This document shows, piece after piece, positions 26,927 through 64,000 of a stretch of 64,000 nt of DNA. The first letter of the stretch is position 1; the number at the start of each line of letters is the position of its first letter. The notes under the pieces were generated by a model. The model was not told the DNA's origin and made no database searches. It saw only the letters and a program-made list of their open reading frames with translations. The stretch is taken from the NCBI RefSeq assembly GCF_964204645.1, contig NC_134027.1:15904485-15968484 (forward strand). Direction: 5' to 3'. Origin of the DNA: Tubulanus polymorphus (Eukaryota; Animalia; Nemertea). The position numbers were made by a program, and so were the translations under genes.

Positions 26927-28022
26927 AACTAGGGGTCCAGAGACACCATGCCCACTTGGGAAGTGGTTTCCAATGCTCAACAATCTAACAATTTCAATAT
27001 TCAACGCCCCTGGTGACCATATACAAAAACCAACTCACCACAATCATAGAACCTGTCAGCAGCTACGATTTTGTAGGCCTAATTGAATGTGATAACAAAA
27101 TATGCCTTGTTACCAATTTAATATGGAAATACTAAGTAATTCTACTATTCAAAGCCCCCTAGTGATCATATGCAAAACCCAATGACCTTGAAACTCACCA
27201 CAATCATAGAACATGTCATAAACTACAACTTTGCAATTGATCATGGTAATAAAATATGCCTAGGTATCAATCTAATAAGGAATACTAAGTTAATCTACTA
27301 TTCAACGCCCCCTGGTGTCCATAAAGAATTACTAATGTCCTTAAAACTCACCACAATCATAGACGATGTCATGAGCTACAACTTTGCAACTAATTGTGGT
27401 AACAAAATATGCTTAGGTATCAATATAATGTGGAAAAACTTTTTCCCACCTATGAATGAGTACTGATGATACCAAGATGGCCGCCAATTGCGTCACAATT
27501 GGCCAATCAAAAATACTTGGCTCAGGTATAAAATATCCCTTTCCAAAGAATACCCATCACAAATTGCAATGAGAAATGGCAAACCAGTAGAAAGCTACAG
27601 GACTCAAAATTTGGGCCAAAATTGACATTTCTGGGCACTAAAAAGGTCATAGGACGGCCATCTTGAGTCCGATTGACCCAATTTTTCTTACGGTGATGGG
27701 CCCTTGGGCGGTTCAAATATATACAAAAGATCAAGGTAATTGATATAAGCGTCTTCAAAATTTCCCTCAAAAAGTGTAATCAGTGCTGATTTTGACGAAC
27801 AACAATGGCTGACAGTCGGCCATCTTGATTCTGACAGGGCCAGTTTTTGGGCTGAAGATGTATCTAGGGTAGATACACGTATAAACCAAATATCAAGACA
27901 TTACCTTGAAGCGTCTTCAAAACTTCCCAAAATAACTGGATTCCGTCTACGGACGGACAGACGGACGAACAACAAGTGAATGCAATAGCCCGCTGGGACT
28001 ACAGTCCCAAGTGGGCTAAAAA
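26927..28022 (-). mobile_element. Helentron/HINE (DINE-1-like) non-autonomous element
   Basis: Minus strand begins TTTTTAGCCCAC, then a short hairpin (TGGGACT.TAGTCCCA), a (GTCC)n microsatellite and ~150-bp internal tandem units (TATTCAACGCCCC at ~26998, ~27146, ~27299); ends CTAGTT. Confidence 0.6.
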
Positions 28023-31124: not shown

Positions 31125-32790
31125 TATGGCTGAGAATACCAGTCGTCGTTACGGTTCCCTACAACGTCTGACGCTTAAGTATCATATAGAGGTTAACTCC
31201 TGTTAATTGCAATGCAACAACTGATTTTAGTGTCAAATCAAACCTTTGTACTAAAATAAATTAATAAGTTACCTTGTTGACTTTGAAAACGTGTTTTATA
31301 ATAAAATTTTTGATGATTTAAAATCGCGAACAGGAGAATTTATTGATTTGATTTGATTGCCACTATCGGATTTCCAATACGGACTAAATTAATAAAATGT
31401 GAAAATTCAATATGTCTCTCTACAATTACTCTAAATGTTATTTTTTGTTGATAAAACACATAAATTTTGGTCAATTTTAACCTTAAGGATTTGAAACAAG
31501 AATAAGCATAATATCTGCATTGGCATCAATGTCAGTCCAAGTCTAAGTTCGAATCCGTAATTTACACTCCCATCATGCACCACCAAAAGCCGCCATATTT
31601 GTCATGTTGCTTCACTTCAACTGTTTTTTGAGGCGACTAGTCAAAAGTTTTGAGCTAGTACGATCATCAAAAGCTACTTAGGATTACAAATTTATGCACA
31701 AACAATAGTTTACTTCCATCTGATTACAATACAGTCAGTTTGAGGTAAGTTGATGGTGTTTTAAGGGGTGAAATAGACGCTCAAAGCATCGTCCCTCAAA
31801 ATGAGGGACGAAAATTAACCTTATATGAGCACTTTCGCCCTAGACGTTGTTTGAGGAACAACGGCTACTGTCTGTCACACCTGCTCTCCCTGCAACGTTT
31901 TGGCCCGTAATTTCGTTAATAATCGGTTTATCTACCTTTATTAGGCCTACCCATCAATTTGTTAAGTGAGGAATTTGCATTCAGAAATAAACAACAATTT
32001 TTACTAAAGTTGTTTTTGTTTTCATTTATGAGCGATAGTTTACTCAGCATACGCTCGCGTAATGCTGAAAAATCCGCTCCGCGGACGCTCGGAAACGTTA
32101 CAGTGACGTCATCACCTGCGCATTAGCATATCAAAATACAGTGATATGACAGTTATATATCCTATTATTCCATCCAATTGTGAGACACTATCAATTTGTG
32201 AAACGTCTTTACTAATATAAAAGAAAAGGTACTTGACGAAGCGTGGGCGTATAGGAAAAACTTTACAGGCGTTGAGACGGCAACACTAGGTCACACGGGC
32301 ACCTGCTACAAGTATTCCCCTTCTATATTCAAATAAAGCGGGATTTCGTTATGACGTCACTCAACGGTTGAACGACGTTCGGTGACCTAGTGTTGCCGTC
32401 TCAACGCCTGTAAAGTTTTTCCTATACGCTCACGCTTCGTCAACTACCTTTTCTTTTATATTACTAAAGACGTTTCACAAATTGATAGTGTCTCACAGTC
32501 GGATGGAATAATAGGATATATAACTGTCATATCACTAGTAAGTGTCATATAGGCCTAAAATAAAAGTTTTGATTTTAGATTGAAAAACGAAGTTTGTTCA
32601 GTATTTTGTGAGGTCGCCGTGTGTGGAGCCAGCGGCCATCCAAGACGTTTTTTCTCGCATTTATTGCAGAATAACCACTCAAAACACAGATACACTATCA
32701 AAAACCCCAGGAACTGTATCCCAAGCCCATCGGCGAGTGCCTGTGGTCAGACGTTGTACGGAACCGTAACAACAACTGGTATTCAGACTA
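31125..32790. mobile_element. Non-autonomous TIR element with TAG-type termini (possibly Academ-like)
   Basis: ~50-bp imperfect inverted repeat GAATACCAGTCGTCGTTACGGTTCCCTACAACGTCTGAC (~31134) / GTCAGACGTTGTACGGAACCGTAACAACAACTGGTATTCAGACTA (to 32790). Confidence 0.5.
32139..32538. mobile_element. Palindromic MITE with ~155-bp TIRs (possibly Tc1/mariner type)
   Basis: 32140-32294 is the near-perfect reverse complement of 32382-32536; TA on both flanks. Confidence 0.8.
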
Positions 32791-33217: not shown

Positions 33218-33938
33218 TTTTAAGTAGAACAAAAACACCAAACTTATGGACATAGGCCTAGGCTATAGGCCTACAGTGCACTGTGGAGTGTGAGGTGCTG
33301 AGGCGCGGCCATTGAACACAAATATACCATGTTGCCTGAACCGTGTTGTCTTCACATTCGATATTCAATTCAATTTAATGTAGTTTTTTCAATTCAATTT
33401 AAATCAGGCAAAAGTTCATGTCTTGAGGCCGAAGTTGGCACTAGCTTTATAGACATAGATATAACTATAATACGTACTGCCCACATATAAGAAAAGGGAG
33501 TACCGGTACCGGGTACCGGTACCGTAAGTTCGATGTCGTAAATTTTGAGAATTCCTTGATAATCGGGCATAACCCCACAAGAAAAATAACTTCATTTCGT
33601 AGGCAATGTGACTATGTTCAGATTCAAGAAATTTCACAAAATGGAGGATTTTCTCTCTTATTCAACTTGACTAATGGAGACTTTTTGCCAACCATTATGA
33701 GTTTTCCGGTTTGCTCGGCTACCAGTACTCTGGCGGGGTAGTCTAGAGAGGCCAATGAAAACTTCGGTTTGCTGAACTACCCCTCTTTGCGGGGATGCGG
33801 TATGATGTTTGATCTGACAGTTTCAAGTGCTTACAACGATGCTTATTACTTCTTGGTACATGGGTGTTACTAAAACTATGCACACTAAAACGAAGACCGA
33901 AGACCTATGCACTTTGCGAGACTAAAACTATGCATGAC

Positions 33939-34275
33939 AGTAATATGGGTAATAGGCTTTCAGGCCAAAGGTCGAACGGTCGAGCTCATAAAAAATGAAA
34001 AATATGAAAAAATAATAACAATTTCTACTTGAATTAGTCGCGAAACTCATAAAAAATGAAAAATAATTCTCACACACTCGAATTTATTTTTCATTTTTAC
34101 TCGCTAGAAAAAAGTGTGAGTAAAGTGTGAGTGAAATAAATTCGAGCGTGTGAGAATTATTTTTCATTTTTATGAGTTTCACTCCTAATTCAAGTAGAAA
34201 TTGTTATCATTTTCATATTTTTTAATGAACTCGACCATTCAACCTTTAACCTGAAAGCCCATTACCCCTATTACT
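33939..34275. repeat. Left terminal hairpin (two inverted copies of the element terminus)
   Basis: 33939-~34090 is the imperfect reverse complement of ~34134-34275, which ends CCCATTACCCCTATTACT. Confidence 0.85.
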
Positions 34276-34395
34276 CTTAAAATATTCATATATATGAATA
34301 AAATATATATGAATAACATATAAATTGATAGATTATTCAATATAAAAGTGTGAGTGAAATAATTCATATTTAAAACATTGAATATTTATATTTGA

Positions 34396-35046
34396 ATGAG
34401 TTTTAATAAAAATTTTGTTATAAAAATGAAGAAAGAAGAAGAAGAACCCAACTTTAAAATCGAAATCAATGAAACCAATAAATCATTGTCACAGTTTAAC
34501 ATTAAAAATTATATTTCAGCAACAAATTTAGTGTCTCCCAGACATTATAAAATTGAAAATATTACTGTAATTAATCAAATATTATCAAATGAAACATATT
34601 TAATTACTAAACTAATTGATACTTTTGATAATGGTGTTAAAAATCCTAAATTGTTCGATACAGTTTTAAATTTTAAAGGAACTTTAGATGAAAACATAAT
34701 TAATATTCTTAAAACTCCTTTCAATGAAAGAAATGATGATATAATACTTTCAAAAGATTACAATGATTTGATTAACTTAAGAATTGAAAAAAGACAATTA
34801 TATTATTTCAATTTTGATAATAAACAAATTATCTATAATGAAAATTCATCAAATATTGGAATTCAATGTGAATTAGATAATGAAAAATCATTTAAAGATA
34901 TTGCAGTTCAATGTAATTTAGATGATGAATTTAGAAAATTCAATCCTAATGAAAAAGTGCATTGCTACTGCGGAGGTAAATACTTAAAATCACATAAATC
35001 AAAGCATTATGAAACAATTAAACATAAAAACTGGCGTAAAGAGTAA
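34396..35046 (+). CDS. 216-aa hypothetical protein with a C-terminal CxC...H-x5-H zinc-finger-like motif (element-encoded)
   Basis: Intact ATG-TAA ORF in very AT-rich DNA; C-terminus KVHCYCGGKYLKSHKSKHYETIKH; mirrored in the other arm. Confidence 0.7.
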   Translation: MSFNKNFVIKMKKEEEEPNFKIEINETNKSLSQFNIKNYISATNLVSPRHYKIENITVINQILSNETYLITKLIDTFDNGVKNPKLFDTVLNFKGTLDENIINILKTPFNERNDDIILSKDYNDLINLRIEKRQLYYFNFDNKQIIYNENSSNIGIQCELDNEKSFKDIAVQCNLDDEFRKFNPNEKVHCYCGGKYLKSHKSKHYETIKHKNWRKE

Positions 35047-35098
35047 CAATTTTACATTATAATTATTGAATTGAGTTAAATGATTTAAATATCTAATA

Positions 35099-35660
35099 GA
35101 CTGTTAAAATGATAAATTGTTTGACAGTTGAAATGATAAATTGTTTGACAGTTGAAATGATAAATTGTTTGACAGTTGAAATGATAAATTGTTTGACAGT
35201 TGAAATGATAAATTGTTTGACAGTTGAAATGATAAATTGTTTGGCAGTTGAAGAAATGATAAATTGTTTGACAGTTAAAATGATAAATTGTTTGACAGTT
35301 GAAATGATAAATTGTTCTACAGTTGAAATGATAAATTGTTCGACAGTTGAAATGATAAATTGTTCGACTGTTGAAATGATAAATTGTTCGACTGTTGAAA
35401 TGATAAATTGTTCGACTGTTGAAATGATAAATTGTTTGACAGTTGAAATGATAAATTGTTTGACAGTTGAAATGATAAATTGTTTGACAGTTAAAATGAT
35501 AAATTGTTCGACAGTTAAAATGATAAATTGTTCGACAGTTGAAATGATAAATTGTTTGACAGTTGAAATGATAAATTGTTTGACAGTTGAAATGATAAAT
35601 TGTTTGACTGTTGAAATGTAAAATTGTTAGACTGTTGAAATGTTAAATTGTTTGGCTGTA
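35099..35660 (+). repeat. 24-bp tandem array, left arm (~23 units)
   Basis: Unit GACAGTTGAAATGATAAATTGTTT with TTCG/TTCT/ACTG variants; degenerates toward 35660. Confidence 0.97.
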
Positions 35661-35735
35661 AATTTAATTGTTATTTGATTTGAAACATATAAATATTAAA
35701 TATTTTATAAACTGTTTAATTTTTCTCTTAAATAA

Positions 35736-35957
35736 ATGGATGGTTTCATCCCAACTGGGAAAAGTGATTTGAAACATTATTTAGTAGCAGGCGGATTAAT
35801 ATTGGCTGCGCTTTTCTTTTATTATGAAAATATCAGTAAGGATTTGATGAGGAATGAAAATATAAAATTGAGCAAGAAATTAAAGAAGTTAAATGGAAAC
35901 AATCACAGAAAGAATAACAATAAAAAAGTTAATTTAGAAAATGATTTAGAGGAATAA
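35736..35957 (+). CDS. 73-aa putative single-pass membrane protein (central cargo)
   Basis: AAATAA-ATG start; hydrophobic stretch YLVAGGLILAALFFYY followed by a basic/Asn-rich tail. Confidence 0.45.
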   Translation: MDGFIPTGKSDLKHYLVAGGLILAALFFYYENISKDLMRNENIKLSKKLKKLNGNNHRKNNNKKVNLENDLEE

Positions 35958-36004
35958 AACAGCATCTTTTAATTTAATTTATTCTATATATTTTGTCTAT
36001 AAAA

Positions 36005-36247
36005 ATGAGTGAAAATAAGGTATTAGAAATATTACATCTAATATATAAAAATCAACAGAATATTAAATCAATTATTATGATTTCAGGTTTATTTTCATTC
36101 TCAGTTTATACTATAAAACAGTTGTTAGAATTCTATCATTGTTGTAAAATTAGATACACTGAATTAAGAGAAAATATGAATTATATTTCAGATAGATTGA
36201 ATAATATTAAATGCTGTGAAATATGCAATAAAAGATATAAAAGTTAA
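36005..36247 (+). CDS. 80-aa putative membrane-associated, Cys-containing protein (central cargo)
   Basis: AAAA-ATG start at 36005; hydrophobic IIMISGLFSFSVY, heptad-like segment, C-terminal CCEIC. Confidence 0.4.
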   Translation: MSENKVLEILHLIYKNQQNIKSIIMISGLFSFSVYTIKQLLEFYHCCKIRYTELRENMNYISDRLNNIKCCEICNKRYKS

Positions 36248-36406
36248 AAGAGTTTGAGAAATCACATGTATATTCATGAACTTGATGAAAAATTATATGA
36301 ATCAAAATAAGAAATCGACTGTTAAATTAGCTGAAAATATAAAATATATTAGTTGAAATGTATGAAAATAAAAGCTAATAAAAAAGGGGGTTGAGGTATC
36401 AATTAT

Positions 36407-37260
36407 TATCATTTCAACTGTCAAACAATTTATCATTTCAACTGTCAAACAATTTATCATTTCAGCTGTCAAACAATTTATCATTTCAACTGTAGAACAA
36501 TTTATCATTTCAACTGTCAAACAATTTATCATTTTAACTGTCAAACAATTTATCATTTCAACTGCCAAACAATTTATCATTTCAACTGTCAAACAATTTA
36601 TCATTTCAACTGTCAAACAATTTATCATTTCAACAGTCGAACAATTTATCATTTCAACAGTCGAACAATTTAACATTTCAACAGTCGAACAATTTATCAT
36701 TTCAACTGTCGAACAATTTATCATTTCAACTGTCAAACAATTTATCATTTCAACTGCCAAACAATTTATCATTTCAACTGTCAAACAATTTATCATTTCA
36801 ACTGTCAAACAATTTATCATTTCAACTGTCAAACAATTTATCATTTCAACTGTCAAACAATTTATCATTTCAACTGTCAAACAATTTATCATTTCAGCTG
36901 TCAAACAATTTATCATTTCAACAGTAGAACAATTCATCATTTCAACTGTCGAACAATTTATCATTTCAACTGTCAAACAATTTATCATTTCAACTGCCAA
37001 ACAATTTATCATTTTAACTGTCAAATAATTTATCATTTCAACTGCCAAACAATTTATCATTTCAACTGTCAAACAATTTATCATTTCAACTGTCGAACAA
37101 TTTATCATTTCAACTGTCAAACAATTTATCATTTCAACTGTCAAACAATTTATCATTTCAACTGTCAAACAATTTATCATTTTAACTGTCAAACAATTTA
37201 TCATTTCAACTGCCAAACAATTTATCATTTCAACTGTCAAACAATTTATCATTTTAACAG
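36407..37260 (-). repeat. 24-bp tandem array, right arm (~35 units), inverted relative to the left array
   Basis: Plus-strand unit AAACAATTTATCATTTCAACTGTC is the reverse complement of the left unit. Confidence 0.97.
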
Positions 37261-37314
37261 TTTATTAGATATTTAAATCATTTAACTCAATTCAATAATT
37301 ATAATGTAGAATTG

Positions 37315-37965
37315 TTACTCTTTACGCCAGTTTTTATGTTTTTATGTTTCATAATGCTTTGATTTATGTGATTTTAAGTATTTACCTCCGCAATAACAAT
37401 GCACTTTTTCATTAGGATTGAATTTTCTAAATTCATCATCTAAATTACATTGAACTGCAATATCTTTAAATGATTTTTCATTATCTAATTCACATTGAAT
37501 TCCAATATTTGATGAATTTTCATTATAGATAATTTGTTTATTATCAAAATTGAAATAATATAATTGTCTTTTTTCAATTCTTAAGTTAATCAAATCATTG
37601 TAATCTTTTGAAAGTATTATATCATCATTTCTTTCATTGAAAGGAGTTTTAAGAATATTAATTATGTTTTCATCTAAAGTTCCTTTAAAATTTAAAACTG
37701 TATTGAACAATTTAGGATTTTTAACACCATTATCAAAAGTATCAATTAGTTAAGTAATTAAATATGTTTCATTTGATAATATTTGATTAATTACAGTAAT
37801 ATTTTCAATTTTATAATGTCTTGCGGACACTAAATTTGTTGCTGAAATATAATTTTTAATGTTAAACTGTGAAAATGATTTATTGGTTTCATTGATTTCG
37901 ATTTTAAAGTTGGGTTCTTCCTCTTCTTTCTTCATTTTTATAACAAAATTTTTATTAAGATTCAT
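37315..37965 (-). pseudogene. Inverted copy of the 216-aa zinc-finger ORF with two nonsense changes
   Basis: Near-identical translation; AAA>TAA at ~37750 and ATT>TAA at ~37342. Confidence 0.85.
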
Positions 37966-38085
37966 TCAAATATAAATATTCAATGTTTTAAATATGAATT
38001 ATTTCACTCACACTTTTATATTGAATAATCTATCAATTTATATGTTATTCATATATATTTTATTCATGTATATGAATATTTTAAG

Positions 38086-38427
38086 AGAATAGGGGTAATG
38101 GGCTTTCAGGTTAAAGGTTGAATAGTCGAGTTCATTAAAAAATGAAAAATATGAAAATAATAACAATTTCTACTTGAATTAGGAGTGAAACTCATAAAAA
38201 ATGAAAAATAATTCTCACACGCTCGAATTTATTTCACTCACACTTTACTCACACTTTTTTCTAGCGAGTAAAAATGAAAAATAAATTCGAGTGTGTGAGA
38301 ATTATTTTTCATTTTTTATGAGTTTCGCGACTAATTCAAGTAGAAATTGTTATTATTTTCATAATTTTCATTTTTTATGAGCTCGACCGTTCGACCTTTG
38401 GCCTGAAAGCCTATTACCCCTATTACT
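38086..38427. repeat. Right terminal hairpin
   Basis: AG(-)AATAGGGGTAATGGGCTTTCAGG at 38086 pairs with CCTGAAAGCCTATTACCCCTATTACT ending at 38427. Confidence 0.85.
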
Positions 38428-39363
38428 CATGACTAAAACGGAAGACCGAAGACCTATGCACTCATTAGAAATCATAACTAGGGGCGCTATCTGTATATTC
38501 AACCATCTGTAAATCTGCTATCTGCTATCTGTAAATAACGTTTGTTATGTTTCAAAGTGCTTTTATCTACTGTTTTTGTAAATAATTGTAAATACTGTTT
38601 TTTCCTCCATGTACCATGGGAATGGTTGGAGTGTAATAAATATTCGTATTCGTACCACCTCTGTCGATGAGTATAGGCAATCGGGACCTACTAGATATGT
38701 AACGTAAAATGTTCGGTTATTTTTCTCGGGTGCATAGGTCTTCGTTTTAGTAGTGCATAGTTTTAGTAACACCCACACACGCAAAACTAAAACTATGCAT
38801 GACTAAAACGAAGACCTATGCACTTTTACAAAACTTACTTCAAACATAGAATTATTCACGCAACCACTTCGGGGAAGCTCCAGTTACGACTATGCCGATA
38901 AATGTACGTATTTACGTATGTACGCATATGTGAATTGTGTAGACATCGTTCAGAAGGTACTGGACAATCCTAAGATTAGGAAAGTAGGTATTGAGTAAAT
39001 GGCAGAAACAATTATACTTAATGATTCCTTCTTAATTGTATTATTATATTCTTGCATGAAAGTTTAATATGTGTATGATTAACATGGATGATGACCTTTT
39101 ATTCTTTTACACTGAGGCCAGAATTTGACTGCTCAGTGTCATACCGTTTAAATTATGTTTACGTAGAATGTATGACGAAGTGAATGTGCACCTTGTGTAT
39201 AACGCTCAGAAGAGAGTATTATTTAGTTTCTAATTCTAATCGTCTTTTCAAGCTGACAGGTGACCACACGAATTGTTTTTCATTGTTAGTGGTATAATCA
39301 TGTACATTATAAGCATGTACCGACGACCCAGTATCTAGTGGAAGCTGCACTACAAGCAAACGT

Positions 39364-40693
39364 TTGAATTCAAAATGGCGGCAGTTTAAAGTTGTGATTC
39401 GTTATCGGTCTCTGAAATTTTGGATTATTTATACGTTCATCTTCGACTATAATCTAGTCAACCTACTGCAAGATGGATTTAAAGCGACCGTTAACTATTA
39501 TGTGCATCGGCAAATTAAAACTTTTATGGTTAATGAATTGCCCAACACTACGAATGTAACCATAAAAGACGCTCCGGTCGAATTATCTGATGCGTTCATC
39601 GCCGCAGAACTGTCCAGATTCGGCAAAGTTGTAAACGGCAGCGTTCGCCGTGGAAAGATAAAAAATACTGAGATTCTGAATGGGACAATATATGCAAAGA
39701 TGATCGAAGTAAAAGATATAGTTCCAGTTGAGACAAAATTTGGCAAATTCGATGTTAGAATTTATTGTGACAATAACAAGACGCAGTGCCGGTATTGCGG
39801 GGGTACCGATCACCCATATTTCCGTTGTCTTTTGCGCTCGCGGAAATTGTGCTGCAAGTGCAAAGCTGCAGATCATCTGGCGGCGGATTGCTCATTAGGC
39901 ATTGTTTGTTTTTATTGCCAGACTGAAGGACACAAAAAAACTGATTGCCCTAGACTACGGGAAGTTCAGACAAAATTATTCAATGAACCGGACTCGAACT
40001 CAACTAGTGAACACAGTTCTGATATAGTTGAATCAACACCAGCTATCGTCAGATCAAAACCAACCGCCCGTAACTGAGGCGTGTTCAGCTGCCAAATCGC
40101 CTAAATCGCCCGAGTGTCTGATAATCGGCGATTCGAATTGCCACCGCCTTATGTTCACTGACATTCCAAATAATGTATGTGTGAATGGGTTATCGGGTGC
40201 CACTGCTCGTGAAATTAGTCAACAACTATTAAGCCTTGACAAGTCACTTGTTCGCGAAGAAATAAAAACACTAATTTGTCATTTGGGGACAAAAGACATA
40301 TCTCTCCAGAAAGAGGATCACGATCAAGTAATCCTTGATATGACGAAAGCTGCGAATATCCTTCTCAGCCAATTCCCTGCCGCAAATATAAACATATCCA
40401 GTATCTTGCCTCGGAAGGGAAAAAGCAAAACCGTTATGGCTTTGAATTTAGTTACATCCCTCGTAAACAGATACTTAAAGAAACTTTGTGATAACGAGAG
40501 CAGGCTTCATTACATAGATAATGATATAAAATTCTGCCCAGATGGATCAGCGATACGATCGATGTTCGACTCTACTGACACCAAGGGTGTACATATCGGT
40601 ATTGATGGGGCGAAAGAACTGACCCGCACGTTCTTGGATGTTCTCGGCATCAATGCTGAAGCGAGCAAAAAAAGGCTACGAAGTCAGTCATAA
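39364..40693 (+). pseudogene. LINE ORF1: zinc knuckles + SGNH/GDSL esterase-like domain, frameshifted
   Basis: Three CX2CX4HX4C knuckles (CRYCGGTDHPYFRC, CCKCKAADHLAADC, CFYCQTEGHKKTDC); SGNH-like blocks IIGDS, SGAT, HLGTKD and GVH. Confidence 0.8.
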
Positions 40694-40823
40694 TCTTCGG
40701 GTAGTCCGAATAGTGTTCAGGCTTCTAAAATCCTTATTACCAATGATTCACCGGTAACAGTTGCATAATTTCTATGCATTGTTCTTTACCTATACATCTC
40801 TGAATATATTATAATTTACTATA

Positions 40824-43721
40824 ATGGACTTTTCTACAAACGTTGATAATATCTCACAGAACTGTTTAGATTGTAAATATTTTAGTGATAATGATTTTCC
40901 TTTTCGTAAGGATACGTTTTCTATTTTATCCCTTAATGTACGAAGCATGAGTAAAAATTTTGAAGCTTTAACTCATTATTTGGATATTTTAAAACTCAAA
41001 TTCTCGGTTATTGGTCTTTCTGTGACTTGGGCTAGCCAAAATAACAACAACAGCAACATGTACCATCTGAATGGATACAAAAGTATTTTCAAATGTAGGG
41101 AAAATGGCAAAAGAGGGGGTGGGGTATCATTGTATTTGAAAAATAATTTAGTTTTTAATCTGCGTTCGGATTTAAGTAAAGATGAGTTGACGTTTGAGTC
41201 TTTTTTGTAGAAATTAATTATAAAAAGCATAAAAACACTATTGTTGGAATTATATATAGACCACCTGGATCAAGTATGCAAAGTTTTCAAGATGAATTTA
41301 ATACACTCTTAGACAAATTAAATCGTGAAAATAAAAATTGCTACCTTTTTGGTGATTTCAATATAAATCTGCTTATGTCTGATGTACATCATCCTACAGA
41401 TGTTTTTATAAACACATTGATTGCAAATTCCTTTTGTCCTTTGATTGATAAACCGACTAGAGTAACCAGCGACTCAGCTACCTTAATAGATAATATCTTT
41501 TGTAACAACTTAGACCAGAGTTTCAAGTCCGGTATTTTATGTACCGATATTTCAGATCATTTCCCAGTTTTTGTTTTGTGTGGTGATCAACAACCCACCA
41601 TTCAAGCGAGCAATATCAAAACGAGGAATTTTTGTACGCGTAATATCGATATTTTCACTCGTAAGCTGCAATCAGTAGACTGGCCGATTGTAACTAATAA
41701 TCTAAATGCAAATCTGTGTATGATGAATCCTTCCCATTAATGAATTCTAAAATTGATAAAGTTACTCGTAACAAACCCTGGTTGTCAACAGGCCTTTTAA
41801 AATCAATAAGACGTAAAAATTGTTTATATAAAACATTTTTAAGAAATCCTACGGATGCCCGTAAGCTTAGATATTCCAGATATAAAAACATTCTTAGTAA
41901 CTTATTAGACTATGCAGAGAAATCTTACTACGGTGAGCAACTATTTTCGGCTTCTAATGATATGAAACAAACAGGGAAAATTATAACGATATTCTTGGAA
42001 AGACTTCGAATTCGGAACATTTACCTGACGTATTTAAACTTGATGGGTCACTAGTAAATGGAAAAGCCAATATTGCTGATAGTTTTAATGAGTATTTTGT
42101 AAATATCGGCAATAAACTTGCCGACAATATCCCTCTCAAAAACACACATGTCAAAGTTTTTTTGCGAAACAGTCAAAATGAAAACTTCTTTTTATTTCCA
42201 GCAACACCAGCTGAACTGACGAATATTGTAAAGAATTTTGATTCCAGGAAAGGTTTGGGTATTGACGAGATTAGCACGAAAGTAACTAAAAATGTTTTTG
42301 ACTTAATCAAAGATCCTCTCTGTCATGTTTTTAACTTAAGTTTACAGACTGGAATTGTTCCAGACAAATTAAAGATTGCTAGAATCCAACCTCTTTATAA
42401 AAGTGGTGACAAAGATAATTTCAATAATTACCGGCCTATCTCAATCTTGCCTTGCTTTTCAAAAATTCTTGAAAAAGTCGTATATGATAGACTAATGTCT
42501 TATTGCGATAAATTTTCTATCATTAATTCTAACCAGTTCGGTTTTAGGAAGAATCATTCCTCTGCCATGGCACTTATCAAAATTTATGATGAAATTTCTT
42601 ACAATCTTGAAAATAAAAATCCCACTATCGGTGTTTATCTGGATTTGTCAAAAGCTTTTGATACAGTCGATCATGAAATATTATTGTCAAAATTGGATTT
42701 TTATGGAATTAAAGGTCAAGCTTTATGCTGGTTTAGAAATTATTTGGAAAATAGACAACAAAAAGTTCAAATTGGTAATTTCAAATCACGACTTTTGAAT
42801 ATATCTACTGGTGTGCCTCAAGGTTCAATTTTGGGACCATTGCTTTTTATAATCTACATCAATGACTGCATTAATGTCAGCAAAATTTTGAAATTCACGC
42901 TTTTTGCAGATGACACAAATGTCTTTGCGAGTGGTTCCGATATTAATCAACTTGTTCCGACCGTATCTAGCGAACTTGACAAACTAGCCACGTGGTTTCA
43001 CGCTAACAGATTATCCTTAAATTTGCCTAAAACTCATTGCATGGTATTTGGATCGAAACTACCACTTAACACTTCGATTAAAATTAACGGAATTAATATC
43101 AACCAAGTTCATAGCACAAACTTTTTGGGTATAAATATTGACGATAAATTATCATGGATTAATCACATCAATGATGTTCAACGTAAAGTATCTAGGAGTA
43201 TCAGCATGTTAAATAGAATAAAACGATTTTTACCGGAGAAAAATCTTATTCAATCATATTTCAGTTTAGTGGAACCGTATCTCAGTTATTGCAACATAGT
43301 CTGGGCTCAAAATTTCAATGTGTACTTAAATTCCTTATTGCTACTTCAAAAGCGTGCGGTTCGAATAATAACAAATTCAAACTATTTAGAACACACTGAG
43401 CCACTTTTTAAAAGACTGAAAATACTAAGAATCAGAGAAATGAACAAATTACAGTTAGGATGCTTTTTGTTTAATTATAACAAATCCATGCTACCTGATT
43501 GTTTTAATAATTATTTTCAATTTCGATATGAAATTCATAATTATCGAACTCGTAGCTTAAACAGTATGGAAATCCCTCGAATTCAAACTCGAAGAAGTAA
43601 GTTTTCAGTAAAGACTTCTGGTCCACTACTTTGGAATTCACTCGATCCAATTTTAAAGGAGTCGAAGAGTATCTTCGTTTTTAAAAAGAATTTCAAACAT
43701 CATCTGTTAAGAGGTCAATAG
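40824..43721 (+). pseudogene. LINE ORF2 (AP endonuclease + reverse transcriptase), frameshifted
   Basis: SLNVRS, GGGVSLY, GDFNIN, TLIDNIF, SDHFPV; NYRPISILP, YLDLSKAFDTVDH, GVPQGSILGPLLF, FADDT; spread over four frame segments. Confidence 0.93.
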
Positions 43722-53164: not shown

Positions 53165-54190
53165 TTCTGGATAATCAGATTTAAAATATATTTCAAAAGC
53201 TGCGGCACTTTGACGAATTTTTTTAATAGTATTTATTTTTGGTGGTTCTTCTGAAAAATCAATTTCATTAGAATTTAATTTCTTTCTTTTATAATATATT
53301 TCTTTTCTATTTTGATCAGTTAATTCAAAATCTCCATATATTACAAATGGTACTTAATCATATTCTTTGAATTCTAATATTTTATCTTTTTCATTTGGTA
53401 AAATTAATTTACAATTATCATGATTATCATATAATTGTTTATGATTAATAATGCACTTTCATTACTGAATTTAGCAATACATTTTCTACATAGATACATT
53501 TTATTATTAAAATCAGAATTTGATTTAAAAAATAAATCAATTTGTTTTATCCACATATAAAAAATAATGATTCTCATAATATAATATATCTATAACACCA
53601 TTTGAATCATAATCTTTTGATAAATACAAAGGTTCTAATGTATAATGTTTAATATTATCACCTTTAGTATTTGGTAATTTAATTAAATCGAATACATGTA
53701 TTTTAAGATTATTATCTAAAAATATTTTTTGGAATATTTTTAATTCTAACAGGATAACTGTCTATCGAATAATTATTTTCAAATTATCCTTTGTTAATCT
53801 AAAACTATGTCTAATATCTTCTGTTGGATGTAAGCAACTAATTATTGACCAAAAAAAACATTTATAATCTTCATTTTGTACATTTATAACAGCATTAGTT
53901 TTAAATGGTAATTTGATATAACTTGATGCATTTATATTATCATCTTTATAATATGATTAATTATTTTCATCAATTGGTTTTGATTTAGTTAACTTATTAT
54001 ATTTTGTATTGTATACATGTAACGTCATAAATATTATTTCATCAAATATTAAACCAGATCCTATCCTTCAAAATATTACTCTTCTATTTTACTTTTTATT
54101 TCATTATTACATTTATTTAATCTATCATCTATATGTAATACGTCAACAGGTGTATGAAATGAGGCGTAAGTAACAAAGAATATACTTGTT
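53165..54190 (-). pseudogene. Fragment of a Polinton/Maverick-type protein-primed DNA polymerase B ORF (N-terminal region to exonuclease motif I)
   Basis: Manual minus-strand translation gives GSGLIFDEI, ASSYIKLPFKTNAVINVQNEDYKCFFWSIISCLHP, YLCRKC and VPFVIYGDFE; several stops and frameshifts; sharply AT-rich. Confidence 0.7.
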
Positions 54191-54502: not shown

Positions 54503-55011
54503 TGTCGTGCGTTGGCTGACAGGCGACTGGCAACGATCTAGACTAACTACAGCGAACGTTTCAAACACATTATTTATTATGTATTCACGGTTTGCTACAA
54601 AGAATAAACAAACAAACATTACAGCAACAATAATTATGCTCATTTTACATCATGTACCACAAATTATAGCATTTGAAATAATTGATACATGTATAATCAT
54701 ATTTAATGACCAATTTCATGTTCACTGTGCGACATGTAGAGCTGACACTGAATACACAGATTTCTGATCAAACATTATATAAGCCAAAAGTTACTGAGCC
54801 GTTAAGGCATGATATAAGGCATTCGCCTACACAGAAATGCAAAACTCATAAATCTATAATCCATATCAAAACTTGCCGAGCGTAAAAAAACACAAAGAAA
54901 GTATGAAATTACAAATCATAACAAATACAAAAACCATAGCTCTAATGAATAATTTCTTATACGACAAAACCATTTACTAATCTAATTATAAATTAAAGCT
55001 AATTTCTAACA
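54503..55011 (-). repeat. 3' LTR of the BEL/Pao element
   Basis: TGTCGTGC...TTCTAACA; direct repeat of 62395-62901 with a few indels and substitutions. Confidence 0.93.
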
Positions 55012-57717
55012 TAGCACCTCCTTGGCAACAATACAAATGTTGGCAAAATTTAACAACGCTTTTAGTCACTCGTGTGACAGCACATGTACCCATGATACGG
55101 TTATTATCTAATAATAATTTTGATAATAATTCAATCAGCGATTTTCCTCTAATACACAAATTTTAGATACAGGTCGTATGAACTCAGAACCTCTTGTTTT
55201 GACCTTAAGGGCTCTTACTCGTCCATCCTTACCGGGCATAGTATTTGTTACCCTACCTAACGACCATTGTCCCCTTGGGATATTTTTATCAACGATAATT
55301 ACTAAATCTCCAATTAGTCCACTTACCTCTTACAGTGAGGGAAGGCAAGTATTCAATGATCCATCGTCTCCACACATGGTCCGCCAGAACCTGACACTGC
55401 CGCCACCTTTTACGGCTATTGATCTCTTTGTTTTCAAACTTACCAAATGAAGACTATTGAAGATGCTCCACCATGGAGAAAATGATTAGGGGTTATTGGT
55501 GTTAGATCGTTCGGGTCTGAGCTGTTATATGTAAGGGGTCTACTGTTAATGGCACCTTCCACCTCTGTAAGGGTAGTACGTAATACAGTTTCACAGACAC
55601 ATTGCTCCCCAAGTACTGACTTCAAAGCTCTCTTAACCGACCTTAGTTAACGTTCCCATACGCCACCGAAGTGAGGCGCGTTGGGCGGCATGAAAATCCA
55701 CTTTGTGCCTTTTTCTACTAATAAATTTGATACGAACGACTGATTCCATTCTGAAAGACAAGACTTTAATTCCCTTTCAGCACCAATGAAATTGGTTCCA
55801 TTGTCACGATACAACTCCCTAGGCGTACCACGTCTACTAATAAAACTACGTAGAACCAACATGAAACTATCAGTTTCGAGGGAATCTGCTAATTCAAGGT
55901 GAACTGACCGAGTCACAAGGCAAGTGAATAGACAAACTCATCGTTTAATAACAGAACGACCTCTTTTTATCAACAGAGGTCCAAGGTAATCAACTCCTGT
56001 ATATTCAAATGGGCGAGAATACGCAGTTAAACGAAAGTCCGGTAAATCAGACATAAAAGGTATCTTAGGCATTGCCGTTCGTCGCCAACAAGTAAAACAT
56101 TTGCGAATGACTGATTTCGCCACAATTCGAGCCTTAATAGGCCAATACTTTTGTCGTACAGACGCTATGACATGTTCAGGCCAAGAATGCAATTACAATA
56201 AATGTTCACGTTTCACGATTAGATTCGTACTATGGTGACCAAATGGGAGTAATAATTGATGCTTAGCTTCATTTGGAATATAGGGTGCGTTACGTATCCT
56301 ACCCCCGACTCTTATATAGGGACCATCTATGAATGGATCGAGACAACGTAACCTACTCTTATTAGCTACTATGCCTTGATGCAGCGAATTATACTCGCTC
56401 CGGTACGATTCCCGTTTGCGCATTTACAATTAAACACATCTCTGCATCATTTAATTCCTCTGGTAAAAGATATTTTGATTTTATAGCTGTCATACCTAGC
56501 CTGGGAATTTTAGCAGCAAAATTTCTTACCGCTCGCAAAATCCATGCAGTTTTGCGTTTTAGCAACATCAATGATGAAACATCTTGAGGCGTAATTAGAC
56601 CCTCAAGGTCTAAACTAAGAAGTAATGAACTGTCGTAAACAGCAGTGTTGTTCACATATTTGAACCTTTGAACGTTATCATCGTTTTCACTAACGGAACC
56701 CAAGACCGGCTGATCCGGCCATTTTTCAGTCGTCTGAAAAAGAAACTCTGGCCCTCGTAACCATCTTTGTTCAATATTTAAACTTCCAGCTGGAAGACCA
56801 CGAGTACAGTCATCTGCTGGGTTTAAATTACTAGGGACATATTTCCACTGATTAGGATTTGTAGATTCACGAATCTCCGTAACTCTATTAGCTACAAACA
56901 TTTTGAATCGCTTCGATTCATTGCTTATGTACCTCAATACAGTGGCTGAATCAGACCAAAGATATACTTTATCAAATGAAATTCCTAATTCAGCCTTTAA
57001 CGTCTCTGATAAACGTGCGGATATAACTGCACCTTGTAGTTCCAATTTTGGCACCGTTAATCTCTGTTTAATTGGAGCTAAATGAGTTTTCGATGCAGCT
57101 ATTGAACAATGAATAGAATTATCAAAAGTATAACGCAGGTACGCAACAGAACCAAAGCCACGTTCTGAAGCATCCGAAAACAGATGTAACTCAATATGTT
57201 TTGCGTTAGAAGAGAAACCTAAGTGGTGGCGAGGGATACTAACATTTGCAAGAAAAGGTAACTCATCTTGCCACGCGCGCCATCTAACAAGCAAATTATC
57301 GGTCAATTCATCATCCCAGTCTAAATTGCACCTCCATAAATCCTGTATTAAACATTTCGCTTTAAACGTAAATGGAGCGAGATATCCACAGGGATCGAAA
57401 ATTGAACAAAGAGTGCTAAGAACACTGCGTTTAGTAGGAGAAGTTTCCTTAATGTCAGGCCTAAACAGAAAAACATCATTTTCAGGATTCCACTTAATAC
57501 CCAAGACCCTCTCGACTGGCAGTTCATTGAACTCTAAATCTAACGTGGGATCATTACGATCGATATCAGGTATATGCGCCAAAACGTTTTTACTTGAAGA
57601 CATGAATTTGTTAAAATGAAACCCGTCTTTACCGATAATTTCACTAACTTCCCCTGAGAAATTAATAGCGAATGCTTCAGTTTCAACGGATTTGATTAAA
57701 TCATCTACATAAAAGTC

Positions 57718-58843
57718 CGGTGTTGTCATATCGCGGAATCACGGAATCGCGGAATTTTCCAAAAAACACGGAATTTCTTCATTTTCACTATACATAGTAA
57801 CCGAGTTTTTTTCACGGGATACCCTTTGTTGGACAAGGCACCGGACGCATGTTTTTCATTTTTTCATTGCCGGTACCTTGTAGGTCTATGTGATAATCTA
57901 TTACGATCGTCGCTCAACTAATTAACGATATTTCCAGACGATAAATTGGAGAACCTACGCAGGCAATTAATCTATCAACATTGGAACCGCATCTACGAGT
58001 TCTGTGTATGTTACGAATCAATAAACCTTTAACTAATTGAATATATGCTGCATTGTAAAATGGATATAAAAACGATGTATTATTTTGACTGCACTCTTCC
58101 ACTGGTCGTATTAAGACCAAAATGAGGTATGTTTCTATACGGTCAAGAGAAATATCCCAAAATGAACGATGTCAGACGAAAACAGATATACATTTTGCAT
58201 ATTCTGGCTTGAGATTTTTAATTGAATTTTGCGTCTCGTGCATCTAAATTGTGATTAATGCGAGTGTGGTGTATCTAGAAGAGTTATAAAAGTTGTTGAA
58301 TGATATTGAAGATTACTTTTAAAAATGGTATATTTTCTTAACTCCGTTATTTGTGAAGAGAAAGCAGTTACTTAGTTGCTTCTCCTATTGATTCCTTAGG
58401 TCTGAAAAACGTACTATCGGTACTAGACGGCGGTTTCTATCAAATATAAGTTTTAAGGAACCGCGGTACACGCTTGGTAGTAGCACATTTCACGTTTGCA
58501 GCCATCTGAAACTACGGCCCAACCTAGAGCGTCCGTGCTCAAATCTACTAAGAAGATCGCAAAAAGTCGATTAACTTCGATAACCGATGCTTGCACTAGT
58601 GCCAATCTCTTTTTCCGACTACATTCTGACTGTTACTGAAGCTGCAGGTAACTGAACGGTATTATAAAACAATGTCAGATAAAATTGCGTGCGAATAGTG
58701 TGATTCGAAGCTAACTTAGTGCATTGATTGTTCCGGTTCCTTGTTCCCCGCAGGAAAACCAGGTGACTATTTATAGTGAAGGTGAAGAAATTCCGTGTTT
58801 TTTTAATTCCGCGATTCCGTCATTCCGCGATATGACAACACCG
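57718..58843. mobile_element. Mutator-like (MULE) non-autonomous element nested in the BEL RT
   Basis: TIR CGGTGTTGTCATATCGCGGAAT / ATTCCGCGATATGACAACACCG; 9-bp TSD ATAAAAGTC (57709-57717 and 58844-58852). Confidence 0.85.
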
Positions 58844-60234
58844 ATAAAAGTCCCTGACAACTGTATCTACAGTGACTTTACTATATTTACATCGGTTGCT
58901 GATCGCTTCAACGCATAATTGGCACAACTAGGGGAATCCTTGGCCCCAAATATATGTACATTCATTTTATATACTCCAGGTAATCCGGGTTTATAGACAT
59001 CCTCCTTCCAAATAAACCGTAAAGAATCAGAATCTGCCTCAGACACTCTCACTTGGTGGAACATCGCCTTTATGTCGGCAACTAATGCCACCTCATAAAG
59101 CCTAAAACGTTGAAGAATACCAAACAAGCTGTTTAACAAATCTGGCCCAGTCACACGAGTTCTTCATATTTTGAAGCCGCGTCGAATACGACTCTGAATT
59201 TACCAGGCTTGTTTGCATTCAACACGCAATGATGTGGTATGAACCATGTTCTGGGACTAACGACTGAAGCTTCCTCAGACGTTAACTTGCGTGCATAACC
59301 ATCGGCGATGTAAACGTTCAATGTATCAGAATACTTTTTTCATGTTTGGATCTTTATACAAACGACTAGCCAAAATTCCAAACCTCCTTTCAGCAACAGA
59401 TTTATTAAAAGGAAGCGTACTACTCTTATCCCTCCAAAGCATCCCAACTTCATAGTGCCGCTCAACGATTTTTGTAGTATTTTCTAAGATAGACAAGGCC
59501 CTTTGATCCTCAATTGACCCTGTCTGACCTTGACAGGCTACATCAAAAGACTCAGTGGACCAAAAACGTTCAACCTGTTCGTTTAAATCCTTATCCCCTG
59601 CAATTATACAATTAACGTGAGCTTGGACATCAGCTAAAGATTCTACATATGAAGGACCAAAGAGACACCAACCCAGGCAAGTTTTTATAGCAAAAGGCTC
59701 CCCTGCAGCGCCTTCTTTTACGTCAATTTGGAGGTGAGCCTTTGGTACATCCGCTCCTATTAATACCCTAATCTGATCGGGAGAAAATCACAAATCGTCA
59801 CAAATCTCCAAACCATTCAAATGTTGCATATCAGAAACACGTGCTTTAAGATTTTGAGATGAACAATTGAAGTTGCCGTAATTTGTCCATGCATTTTTTA
59901 CAGTAATAACATCACTGTAGAGGTCCGACTGAGAACACATTGAAAACGAAAGGCACTGAGAATGATGCGAAGTACTAGTATGGAGGGTGTTAACCGTTAG
60001 CAAGTGTCTCTTACCATGCAAACCAAGATCATTCGCTAGTTCATTGTTAATTAAGGTGACATCACTGGCAGAATCCAGCAGAGCATATGTGGACACGCGG
60101 TGACCGTTGCTTCCCTGCACTGTAATCGGCACTATCTGAAAATAAACTTGCAGAGTATTACAACTTGAATTAACAACCGTACAGTTACTAGATGTTTGAA
60201 CATTATTAACAGTACTTTTATCATTACGTGGCCG

Positions 60235-61022
60235 CACAGGGGTTTGGCGATGGGCTTGGATTTTATTTCCGGGTTGTTGACAATCTCGCGAGAATGGCGC
60301 TAAATATGAACTGCGAATAAATTCAAAATATCACGGAAATACCTTGTGTTTATATTGTTTATTTATCCGCTATAAAGTTCTGATAAACAATTGGTCGTTA
60401 AGAATCATTATCAGACGGTCGTCATGCTTTACTATATAAAATCACAAGGGATGAAACGCCAGGCCTCCGCTGTACTTAAATTTTCAGCCAGAAAGTTGGG
60501 ACAGTCACGTGACATTCTGATGACGTCATCGCATTTAAAACTTCAACACGAAAAGTTAACATATTCACAGACCGATATCAACTGTCAGATTATGATTCAT
60601 ATGAAATAAATAACTTATAAGGAATAAATTATGACGAAATATATAATTCATAGTAAAAAAATGCATTTGAATGTAAGTTATTCTCAAATATTTTTCGTAT
60701 CATAGTTTCCATCTTATATGCTTCAGGTTCGCGTTCAGTCAAATAAGAAGCGTTAAGTCACGTGACTGTCCCAACTTTCTGGCTGGCACAACTCTGAAGG
60801 CGTTTCATCCCTTGTTCTTTTATATAGTAGCGTGACGACCGTCTGATAATGATTCTTAACGACCAATTGTTTATCGAAACTTTATAGCGGATAAATAAAC
60901 AATATAAACACAAGGTATTTCCGTGATATTTTGAATTTATTCGCAATTCATATTTAGCGCCATTCTCGCGAGATTATCAACAACCCGGAAATAAAATCCA
61001 AGCCCATCGCCAAACCCCTGTG
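60235..61022. mobile_element. P-element-like (or hAT-like) MITE with ~280-bp TIRs, nested between BEL gag and protease
   Basis: Termini CACAGGGGTTTGGCGATGGG / CCCATCGCCAAACCCCTGTG; 8-bp TSD CGTGGCCG (60227-60234 and 61023-61030). Confidence 0.85.
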
Positions 61023-62394
61023 CGTGGCCGATGAATAGAAGTATGATGTTTCTTCCCGCATCCCAATTCCTTACAGACGCCACTGGATGGACCGAATTAA
61101 GGAAATGACCAGGATATAAGCAATTAAGACATAAACGATTGTTTCTAATCAACTGATATCTATCATTAATTGATTTATCGATATAATATTTACACCTAGA
61201 TAGATGATGGTTTTCTGAACAAATAACGCATTGTTTATCGTTACCGTTATTACATTGAGACGTACATTGAGAGTTGTATGCCTTACACGAGGAACTAAAG
61301 TTCCAGAATTACTTATCTGACTATCACTACGTTTGTACTTGCTAGCAACGGAATATGGACCAAAGTCCGCATCAATGCAGTATTTGAGCCAATGCTACAA
61401 GTCGATTAAGGTTGGTTCTCTAACTCGAGATATTCTACGGACATAGCCGTTCCACTTCCACAAGTCGCTACTACCTAACTCATGTACATAGTTCATTTGT
61501 TTAAGAATCATAACACAATCTCTAACGGAGATGTAAAAGTTACGTAAACCAACAGAATCATATTCACTAACAGAAGGTCCTTTAGCAATAGAGTCAATGT
61601 AGGCACGTGCCACATGAACCCGATTGCCAAATGCAAACTTAAGCTCTTTTAAAGCCAAAACATAATTTGTAGCACTAAACCCGAGACCCTGAATGAGTTT
61701 TCTAGCCTCACCTGACACATGGGATTGAAGCAAGTCCATTCGACGAATGTCTCTCAGTGTTGATTTAGAGTGGACTTGTACGAAAAACTGCTCGATAAAT
61801 CTTGGCCAATTCAACGAAGCTCCATCGAAGACCGGAAGTACGATTTTTGGCAGATCACGATCGGTTTCGAGTCTCGCAAAGACTTCCTCTAATGGTGGTG
61901 ACTCAGTTGATGATAGTTGACTTGATGTTTCTACACCCTCGACAAGAGCGTCGATCCAAGCATCCACGGATTCAAACATTTGATCTGGAGAAATATCGTA
62001 GTTCTCGGTGTGCGGCTCAAATGGCGTTGCTTCAGGACTTAAAATGCTCGATGATGACGGACTCTTAGTTAATTCGTCTAATCTAAGGAGACATTGAGTG
62101 GCTTTCTGAAAGTAAGTATCAAGCCATTCCTCCGCCTTTATGATGTCAGATTCTTCTGCGAGTGACGAAACGTGACGATTATGCGCCGACTGTAAAGAAC
62201 TCATACAGCCTGTTATTCGTTCCTTCAACGGCTGAATCTGCGAAGACTGTGCTGTTAAGGAATCCGCCTGATTCAGTGCTCGAGACAACCAACCCGCAAG
62301 ACTGGAGGATGTTTTCCTGAGCGAACTCGACTTCGGATCCATTTCCGTCATAGCTAGCGATAGCAACACAGCAGATTTGTAGAAATTCAAACTA

Positions 62395-62901
62395 TGTCGT
62401 GCCTTGGCTGACAGGCGACTGGCAACGATCTAGACTAACTACGGCGAACGTTTCAAACACATTATTTCTTATGTATTCACGGTTTGCTACAAAGAATAAA
62501 CAAACAACAATAATTATGCTCATTTTACATCATGTACCACAAATTATAGCATTTGAAATAATTGATACATGTATAATCATATTTAAAGACCGGCTACTCA
62601 CAATTTCATGTTCACTGTGCGACATGTAGAGCTGACACTGAATACACAGATTTCTGATCAAACATTATATAAGCCAAAAGTTACTGAGCCGTTAAGGCAT
62701 GATATAAGGCATTCGCCTACACAGAAATGCACAACTCATAAATCTATAATCCATATCAAAACTTGCAGAGTGTAAAAAACACAAAAGAAAGTATCAAATT
62801 ACAAATCATAACAAATACAAAAACCATAGCTCCAATAAATAATTTCTTATACGACAAAACCATTTACTAATCTAATTATAAATTAAAGCTAATTTCTAAC
62901 A
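62395..62901 (-). repeat. 5' LTR of the BEL/Pao element
   Basis: TGTCGTGC...TTCTAACA; adjacent to the start of gag. Confidence 0.93.
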
Positions 62902-63171: not shown

Positions 63172-64000
63172 AGTAATAGGGGTTTAGTTGTTCTAGATCA
63201 AAGGTCGAACGGTCGAGTTCATTAAAAACAAAATATTAAAAGTAATTTAAAACTATAATATATTTTCATAGCCGGGTGTATTTTATATTATAACTAAATA
63301 TTTATTCTAAGACATTAATAATTTAAATTTTAAAAGCATATTGCTCCGCGACCAATTGATTTATTTACAATACACAAATTCATATAATCAAATATATTCA
63401 AATAATAATAATTATTCTATTATTTAACTAAAATACACCAAAAAAAGTAACGAGTAATTAACGAGCTCTTATAGAATAGATATATAGATATATTTTAAAC
63501 ATTATTTCAATATTTATATTTGTATGAGTTAGATTTTTAAACATTAAAAGTGTTAGTAAAGTGTGATTGAAATAATTCATATATAAATCATTGAACTTCT
63601 AAAATCAATAAAAAAAAAAAAATTAGTATTAAAATGGAAGCAAATAAGTACTACTGTCCAACATGTAATATCAATATAGATAAATCCTAAAAATCAAGAC
63701 ACAATAAAACTAAAACACATTTAGAGAATAAATTGAAATTAGAATATGTAGATGATACATTAGAAACTAAATTAGAAGAATTAAAGAATGAAAAAGAAAC
63801 ATACAAATGTTATACATGTAATCAATCATTCAGTGATAAAAGATATCATAAAGAACATTTAAAATCTAAAAGTCATATTGGAAATATGAATAATGATATT
63901 TTAGGTGAGGATTATTTTGATAATGACAATGATAAGAAACATAAGACAATTAGAGATGACCGAAGCATTTAAAAGTGATATTGGTTCAGCAGCTATTAGT
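63172..64000 (+). mobile_element. Left end of a second Polinton-like element (runs out of the window)
   Basis: Starts AGTAATAGGGGT and shares CAAAGGTCGAACGGTCGAG.TCAT, AAAGTGTGA.TGAAATAATTCATAT and AATATTTATATTTG.ATGAGTT with the 33939 element; abrupt switch to AT-rich DNA. Confidence 0.75.
63634..63972 (+). pseudogene. Tandem C2H2 (H-x5-H type) zinc-finger ORF with a premature stop
   Basis: MEANKYYCPTCNINIDKS*KSRHNKTKTH...YKCYTCNQSFSDKRYHKEHLKSKSH; in-frame TAA at 63688. Confidence 0.65.

Follow-up and report, generated by a model that had tools for sequence, protein, structure and literature searches.

Background

Polintons, or Mavericks, have ends that start with AG and finish with CT, protein priming at the termini is the model for their replication, and an N in a Repbase Polinton name marks a non-autonomous element; we know of no experimental demonstration of Polinton replication or excision. 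The subject of this report is a 4,489-bp element at positions 33939-38427 of a 64,000-nucleotide stretch of the Tubulanus polymorphus genome (NC_134027.1, 15,904,485 to 15,968,484, forward strand; referred to throughout as the window), and its ends conform to this pattern. Polintons are defined by genes for a protein-primed polymerase and an integrase (PMC5499653), and have inverted repeats of 100-1,500 bp with target site duplications (TSDs) of 5-8 bp (10.1101/2023.08.22.554363), the TSD being given as 6 bp elsewhere (PMC3014272). The name Polinton-1N1_DR has been published (PMC9341505), Maverick consensuses with deletions have been reported at 600-4,500 bp (PMC8504770), Polinton-N1A_NV encodes a capsid (PMC11296320), and the transpovirons are linear elements of ~7 kb with terminal inverted repeats (PMC5499653).

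On balance, the element is probably non-autonomous, an internally truncated representative of a hairpin-ended Polinton/Maverick family present in many copies; the favoured reading is that the family is autonomous and this copy defective. Non-autonomous Polinton derivatives are already known, and terminal hairpins as a lineage trait are the new part.

Boundaries, target site and symmetry

The element and the features within and beside it are as follows.

33939-38427, the element, 4,489 bp, ends AGTAATA…TATTACT (from the sequence)
33933-33938, no strand, left TSD CATGAC (sequence and empty-site reads)
38428-38433, no strand, right TSD CATGAC (sequence)
38781-38830, plus strand, paralogue of the host-repeat target without interruption, with one CATGAC at 38798-38803
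33939-34275, plus strand, left terminal imperfect palindrome of 337 bp, with the position-30 motif and an inner arm ending in a second terminus copy
34345-34382, plus strand, upstream motif held in common with the sister terminus at 63172 (35 of 38 positions identical)
34426-35046, plus strand, open reading frame (ORF) 206, encoding an orphan protein whose C terminus holds a CxC…H…H zinc finger (216 amino acids if read from the upstream ATG at 34396)
35099-35654, plus strand, left 24-bp tandem array, 23.0 copies, decaying toward its inner edge
35736-35957, plus strand, ORF73, coding for a small protein that has a single hydrophobic stretch and ends in a basic tail, under purifying selection among copies
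36005-36310, plus strand, core ORF2, with a hydrophobic stretch and a C2H2 finger, and an in-frame stop at 36245-36247 inside the finger
36373-36406, no strand, abrupt core/array join at near single-copy depth, a likely breakpoint
36406-37258, minus strand, right 24-bp tandem array, inverted, 35.5 copies
37315-37965, minus strand, mirror zinc-finger ORF, broken by premature stops at codons 72 and 208
38088-38427, minus strand, right terminal imperfect palindrome of 340 bp, 98.8% identical to the left in inverted orientation

The 6-bp TSD and the AGT…ACT termini of the original prediction were both found at the element edges, where two flanks would agree over 6 bp by chance with a probability of ~4e-4. 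Likewise, the intact copy of the target motif that had been placed near 38792 corresponds to the paralogue at 38781-38830. Of ten sequencing runs listed, the read analysis covered four. The empty site (joint 33936->33884) was recovered in one X1 contig and in 65 reads of X5, a raw-read run from another sample labelled as the same species, 12% of which was read. The target is a high-copy host repeat (33546-33938 and 38428-38830; 200-900x depth in X5), and a rearranged, partly inverted paralogue of it lies ~300 bp rightward of the element.

The inverted arms are ~1.73 kb each and 95% identical overall, and their alignment outside the arrays, 1,168 columns long, shows 20 mismatches and 11 gap columns (~1,157 aligned bases, 1.7%). 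Each arm runs from a terminal imperfect palindrome through a spacer to a zinc-finger ORF and then a 24-bp array. The unique core measured 751 bp and the inverted repeat 83% of the element, in agreement with the >80% and ~750 bp first proposed. The GC content of the element was 0.24, that of the Polinton relics and relatives 0.20-0.23 and that of the window 0.36. Long ORFs running across the arrays were considered as genes and rejected, being merely open frames of the 24-bp repeat.

It had also been claimed that the whole 4,489 bp inserted as a single unit. The TSD alone is insufficient for this, since it would persist after an in-place deletion inside an inserted element.

Relationship to the Polinton/Maverick lineage

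Two further regions of the window carry polymerase sequence of this lineage.

63172-64000, plus strand, sister Polinton terminus followed by a broken family-B polymerase N-terminus, running past the window end; candidate helper lineage
53165-54135, minus strand, decayed AT-rich Polinton polymerase fragment, 56% identical to residues 244-558 of the polymerase P0015

The terminus at 63172 is 79% identical to that of the element over 75 bp. A motif at position 30 is present in the sister as well and matched four times within the window against none in 100 shuffles. In X5, 913 reads followed the element terminus to 33995 and then departed, with a continuation that matched the 63172 terminus; these reads suggest that the 63172 end type is abundant. 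The ORF behind the sister terminus is 60% identical over 89 amino acids to the N-terminus of P0015 (E 2e-33), and its broken N-terminus holds two C2H2 fingers. No recognisable ends were found near the fragment at 53165-54135.

P0015 (1,363 amino acids) contains all six of the exonuclease and polymerase motifs sought. It gave no Pfam DNA_pol_B_2 match of its own, no informative match in the PDB and a weak endonuclease VII match (E 0.003, below the cut-off); across 1,114 columns its identity with a protein of L005 that passes DNA_pol_B_2 is 33%. Relatives were encoded in 4 of 47 metagenome stretches (L002-L005). L004 (1-7154) carries a polymerase homologue at 78%, an HNH-like ORF (called by eye, with no Pfam match), an 11/22-bp tandem array, two small ORFs, one of them hydrophobic, and an rve integrase above the Pfam cut-off, in that order; the integrase was seen solely in this relative. 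L005 (145-9495) is GC-rich (61%), encodes a repeat-rich ORF of 1,507 amino acids, a family-B polymerase carrying an endonuclease VII insert, and the start of a next ORF, and looks like a Polinton-like virus. The lineage is likely of the type designated pPolB2, carrying an HNH/endonuclease VII insert.

The sister terminus and the polymerase- and integrase-coding relatives bear out the assignment of the ends to Polintons/Mavericks. The element itself has only three ORFs outside the arrays, and no Pfam or NCBIfam match to any of them passed the cut-off. Seven related-Polinton proteins, including two polymerases (P0015 and P0016) and one integrase, gave no tblastn match in the element, and the L004 integrase gave none in either the element or the window. 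The proposed lack of an integrase, polymerase, ATPase, protease or capsid therefore stands as far as tblastn and above-cut-off family matches go, and the proposed non-autonomy is supported, no core genes having been found.

Terminal hairpins

Both terminal palindromes are 87-88% self-complementary, and the left one folded with a z of about -22 relative to 60 mononucleotide shuffles. The identity between the two hairpins is 98.8% inverted against 88% direct, so the same isomer is present at both ends. The turn of the left hairpin (34089/34105) was crossed by 92 raw X5 reads, and the right inner terminus copy is missing bases at its tip. All three inner arms examined have a GGTTGA version of the motif while the outer arms keep a CG-containing form, a hint from three cases that the hairpin arms may not swap. 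Hairpin length variants also occurred in X5, with turns at 34037/34042 (155 reads), 34049/34099 and 34055/34093 and skips of 60-70 bp. In addition, 402 X5 reads entered the hairpin body at 34009 from another upstream sequence, which suggests further end types.

The polymerase-coding relative L002 bears a 257-bp palindrome at 190-446, from AGTAAT to ATTACT, with 85% self-complementarity and a z of -15, in the order GC-richer host-like DNA, hairpin, small ORF and polymerase. The loop of this hairpin holds a GC-rich sub-hairpin. The contig of L003 starts within a hairpin, of which the loop and inner arm are present (1-120). No hairpin was found at the 63172 sister terminus (folding z +1.4). On these sequences the terminal hairpin is a lineage trait, yet not a universal one in the lineage. 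The original prediction had considered a snap-back defective derivative; for the hairpins a snap-back origin in this one copy is not supported, because a hairpin is also borne by L002.

Copy number and the right core/array join

Depth in X5 averaged 5.8x over the unique flank (9 bins) and rose to 1,200-2,200x in the outer hairpin arm and terminus. Reads clipped exactly before 33939 numbered 1,250, with an agreement of 0.35, and include sister-family ends and inner arms; the low agreement indicates many different insertion flanks. Within the core, depth corresponded to ~32-35 copies at both ORF peaks and to ~12 copies past the ORF2 stop. The left array/core join was covered at ~83x (~14 copies), while coverage of the right core/array join was 31x (~5 copies) and then 5x (~1 copy). 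At that right join the array starts abruptly, without the decay toward an inner edge. The drop in depth implies that most core copies continue differently rightward. The exact symmetrical 4.5-kb form is probably rare and a truncation of a longer family member. These depths, ~1 copy at the right join against ~14 at the left, lend no support to the idea that the 4.5-kb unit is a family moving as such.

Zinc-finger ORFs

The original prediction described mirrored zinc-finger genes and had the element keep its own DNA-binding and membrane ORFs. The left ORF is indeed intact; its right counterpart carries the two premature stops. ORF206 occupies the slot held by the polymerase in the 63172 sister, behind the same 38-bp upstream motif (34345-34382), which is likely a promoter. 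Its start is probably the second ATG (34426; 206 amino acids), because the stretch before that codon nearly repeats the one before the L002 polymerase gene.

Neither the 206- nor the 216-residue version matched a Pfam or NCBIfam family, and none of 175 candidates matched in a word search. A HMMER search gave fourteen weak matches, nearly all limited to the C-terminal finger, and three of the five scanned were GIY-YIG proteins. The finger resembles those of small repeat-finger proteins and those of GIY-YIG proteins. The best Atlas score was 0.88 and serves as a lead only, and the single-sequence model (pLDDT 34) was of inadequate quality for a fold search. DNA binding is predicted for the ORF206 product.

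Core ORFs and selection

ORF73 and ORF2 each contain one moderately hydrophobic 19-mer (mean 1.5), and a membrane location is predicted for their products. Among the 40 best-supported of 163 variant sites in the X5 reads, fourteen fell in ORF73, twelve of them at third codon positions, and eight of the fourteen were synonymous where 17% would be expected (p 9e-4). The indels listed in both core ORFs comprised 153 in-frame reads against 4 frameshift reads. These patterns support purifying selection on ORF73. The ORF2 stop is not general among copies, as 42 of 95 reads differ at 36245 and 18 of 95 at 36246. The homologue searches found none for ORF73, and no named family or full-length homologue was found for any of the three element ORFs (ORF206, ORF73 and ORF2).

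Proposed origin of the element

The following sequence of events would account for a truncated copy. A Polinton rve integrase would have made a staggered 6-bp cut and so produced the target duplication. At the 36373-36406 join, either the central part may have dropped out or the left end may have been copied back, through a deletion or template switch in the array; this could have happened in an intermediate undergoing replication or once the element was inserted. What remained would have been the two ends plus three small accessory genes. Any later movement would draw on polymerase and integrase supplied in trans by relatives with the same first ~57-75 bp, for example the 63172 family. The inner inverted copy of the terminus, 260-340 bp in, might allow a single-strand end to fold into a short duplex origin; alternatively, the paired 3' end could self-prime a displaced or excised single strand.

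Several observations weigh against this account. The longer parent was never seen and may itself be without core genes, and the TSD length was read at one filled site only. The 63172 sister is without a hairpin and is therefore not the direct parent of the element. The order of variant units is unlike between the left and right arrays, a misfit with a simple recent copy-back. No homologue of any element ORF was found in L002-L005. ORF2 showed no third-position excess (6 of 17 among the best-supported variants), the variant analysis as a whole covers the best-supported quarter or so of sites given above, and the copy numbers, resting on the nine unique-flank bins of another sample, are possibly two-fold off.

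Longer copies with polymerase and integrase would make the element a defective copy within an autonomous family; longer copies holding nothing but additional cargo would make the hairpin family as a whole a satellite to the 63172 family.

Alternative explanations

The alternative that fares best, although we regard it as doubtful, is a dedicated satellite family with mirrored arms, a small variable centre and selected cargo, in which core genes were never present in this genome and copying and integration depend on the polymerase-coding sister. Hairpin depth corresponds to ~50 elements, if each has four arms, against ~30 for the core, so that most hairpin elements could hold the core ORFs. Purifying selection on ORF73 would fit, and so would the location of ORF206 in the polymerase slot of the sister behind the shared motif and the differing hairpin length among copies (turn 34037/34042, 155 reads). 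However, an autonomous parent would predict purifying selection equally, and hairpins are no satellite marker since a polymerase-coding relative is hairpin-ended too. The right core/array join is near single-copy whereas the left join is shared, and both the mirror zinc-finger ORF and ORF2 are broken in the element copy. Somewhat less likely again, and put forward tentatively, is the broader proposal of an animal Polinton satellite class, near-palindromic, hijacking a helper polymerase and integrase, using fold-back for self-priming or origin rebuilding and carrying selected membrane and zinc-finger genes, in the manner of transpovirons toward giant viruses.

A linear replicon with hairpin telomeres, parvovirus-like or transpoviron-like, that was caught by a Polinton integrase is very improbable. 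Such replicons are alike in their imperfect terminal palindromes, zinc-finger ORFs and small size, but the family searches found no helicase or Rep among the element ORFs, the same hairpin isomer stands at both ends with no sign of flip-flop, and the ends are those of the Polinton lineage.

A similarly low probability attaches to a derivative of the foldback type, descended from a cut-and-paste DNA transposon (Mutator/FB-like or Galileo-like), having modular inverted repeats and moved by an unrelated transposase. Foldback elements likewise have long inverted arms enclosing tandem arrays that are unequal in length, but the element ends match those of a polymerase-coding element, its GC content lies near that of the Polinton relics and relatives and away from that of the window, and its TSD of 6 bp differs from the 9 bp of FB and the 7 bp of Galileo.

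A fold-back assembly artefact, which the palindromic layout and the lack of any contig or read spanning the whole element might suggest, can be dismissed in favour of the real insertion originally claimed, given the unlike arms (20 substitutions, two stops, unequal arrays), the exact TSD, and the raw reads of another sample across the hairpin turn (92) and the empty site (65).

Other features of the window and further searches

A separate imperfect palindrome of ~400 bp (85%) at 32140-32536 is probably like a miniature inverted-repeat transposable element. Two copies of a long interspersed nuclear element with endonuclease and reverse transcriptase lie on the plus strand at 4817-7129 and 39313-43721, the latter with an ORF1 containing a CCHC knuckle (Pfam zf-CCHC and RVT_1). 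A BEL/Pao-like long terminal repeat retrotransposon was recognised by eye on the minus strand at 54503-62901, with direct repeats of ~510 bp (54503-55011 and 62395-62901, 93%) and an inner inverted repeat pair at 60233-61024. These retrotransposon ORFs point to a host that is probably an invertebrate animal. Tandem arrays were located at 6-471 (~145-bp units) and 27032-27440 (~153-bp units).

Strict terminus patterns gave no match in the viral contigs and none in the metagenome contigs. A looser terminus motif was matched at eight viral loci, which were attributed to chance, none having a relative of the five query proteins or a long hairpin. Scanning the viral contigs with the polymerase, the polymerase alignment and the integrase found nothing, and Rfam gave no matches. 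The stretch L001 was rejected as a relative, its match being of low complexity with no tblastn match.

Significance and comparison with known systems

The shortest elements with both ends point to the necessary cis signals. The position-30 motif and the inner inverted terminus copy recur in the element and in the relatives from other samples, the sister having the motif only, and this recurrence leads to concrete predictions for the origin and the integrase site. The occurrence of hairpin ends in a polymerase-coding relative may hint at how such elements are copied. If the family is a genuine satellite whose cargo is under selection, it would parasitise an endogenous DNA virus of animals and depend on it as helper, and in the event of a satellite class the hairpins of the polymerase-coding relatives would reveal a hairpin-assisted step in Polinton replication. 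Should the truncation have occurred just once, the element would be a commonplace defective copy from a Polinton lineage that is itself unusual.

Among known systems, the foldback elements FB, Galileo and TU resemble the element in their long modular inverted arms and inner tandem arrays. They differ in TSD length (7-10 bp) and in having cut-and-paste transposases, whereas the ends of the element are those of a polymerase-coding lineage.

The element is like the transpovirons and Tlr1 in being reduced and linear with inverted ends and Zn-binding ORFs, in its derivation from the Polinton supergroup and in its likely helper dependence (PMC5499653). Transpovirons and Tlr1 encode a superfamily 1 helicase fused to a dead polymerase; no such ORF occurs in the element, and its host is an animal.

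With the non-autonomous Polintons of Repbase and the fragmented Mavericks it has in common that the ends are kept and the core genes lost. Reduced Polintons are known by name and as fragments. Neither ends that form hairpins nor mirrored genes nor cargo under selection, and no near-palindromic non-autonomous Polinton, were found described in the literature searched, the scope of which lay outside Repbase entries, subscription papers and supplements.

Relative to Polintons/Mavericks proper, the element is 4.5 kb in length against 13-25 kb, with arms of 1.73 kb against 100-1,500 bp (10.1101/2023.08.22.554363). It is also unlike them in having a gene inside each arm and terminal hairpins of ~340 bp, with no core genes found. 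It shares internal tandem arrays with the Polinton relative L004, and it is like Polintons/Mavericks in its 6-bp TSD, its long terminal inverted repeats, its AT-richness and small accessory ORFs, and in ends that are those of a polymerase-coding element.

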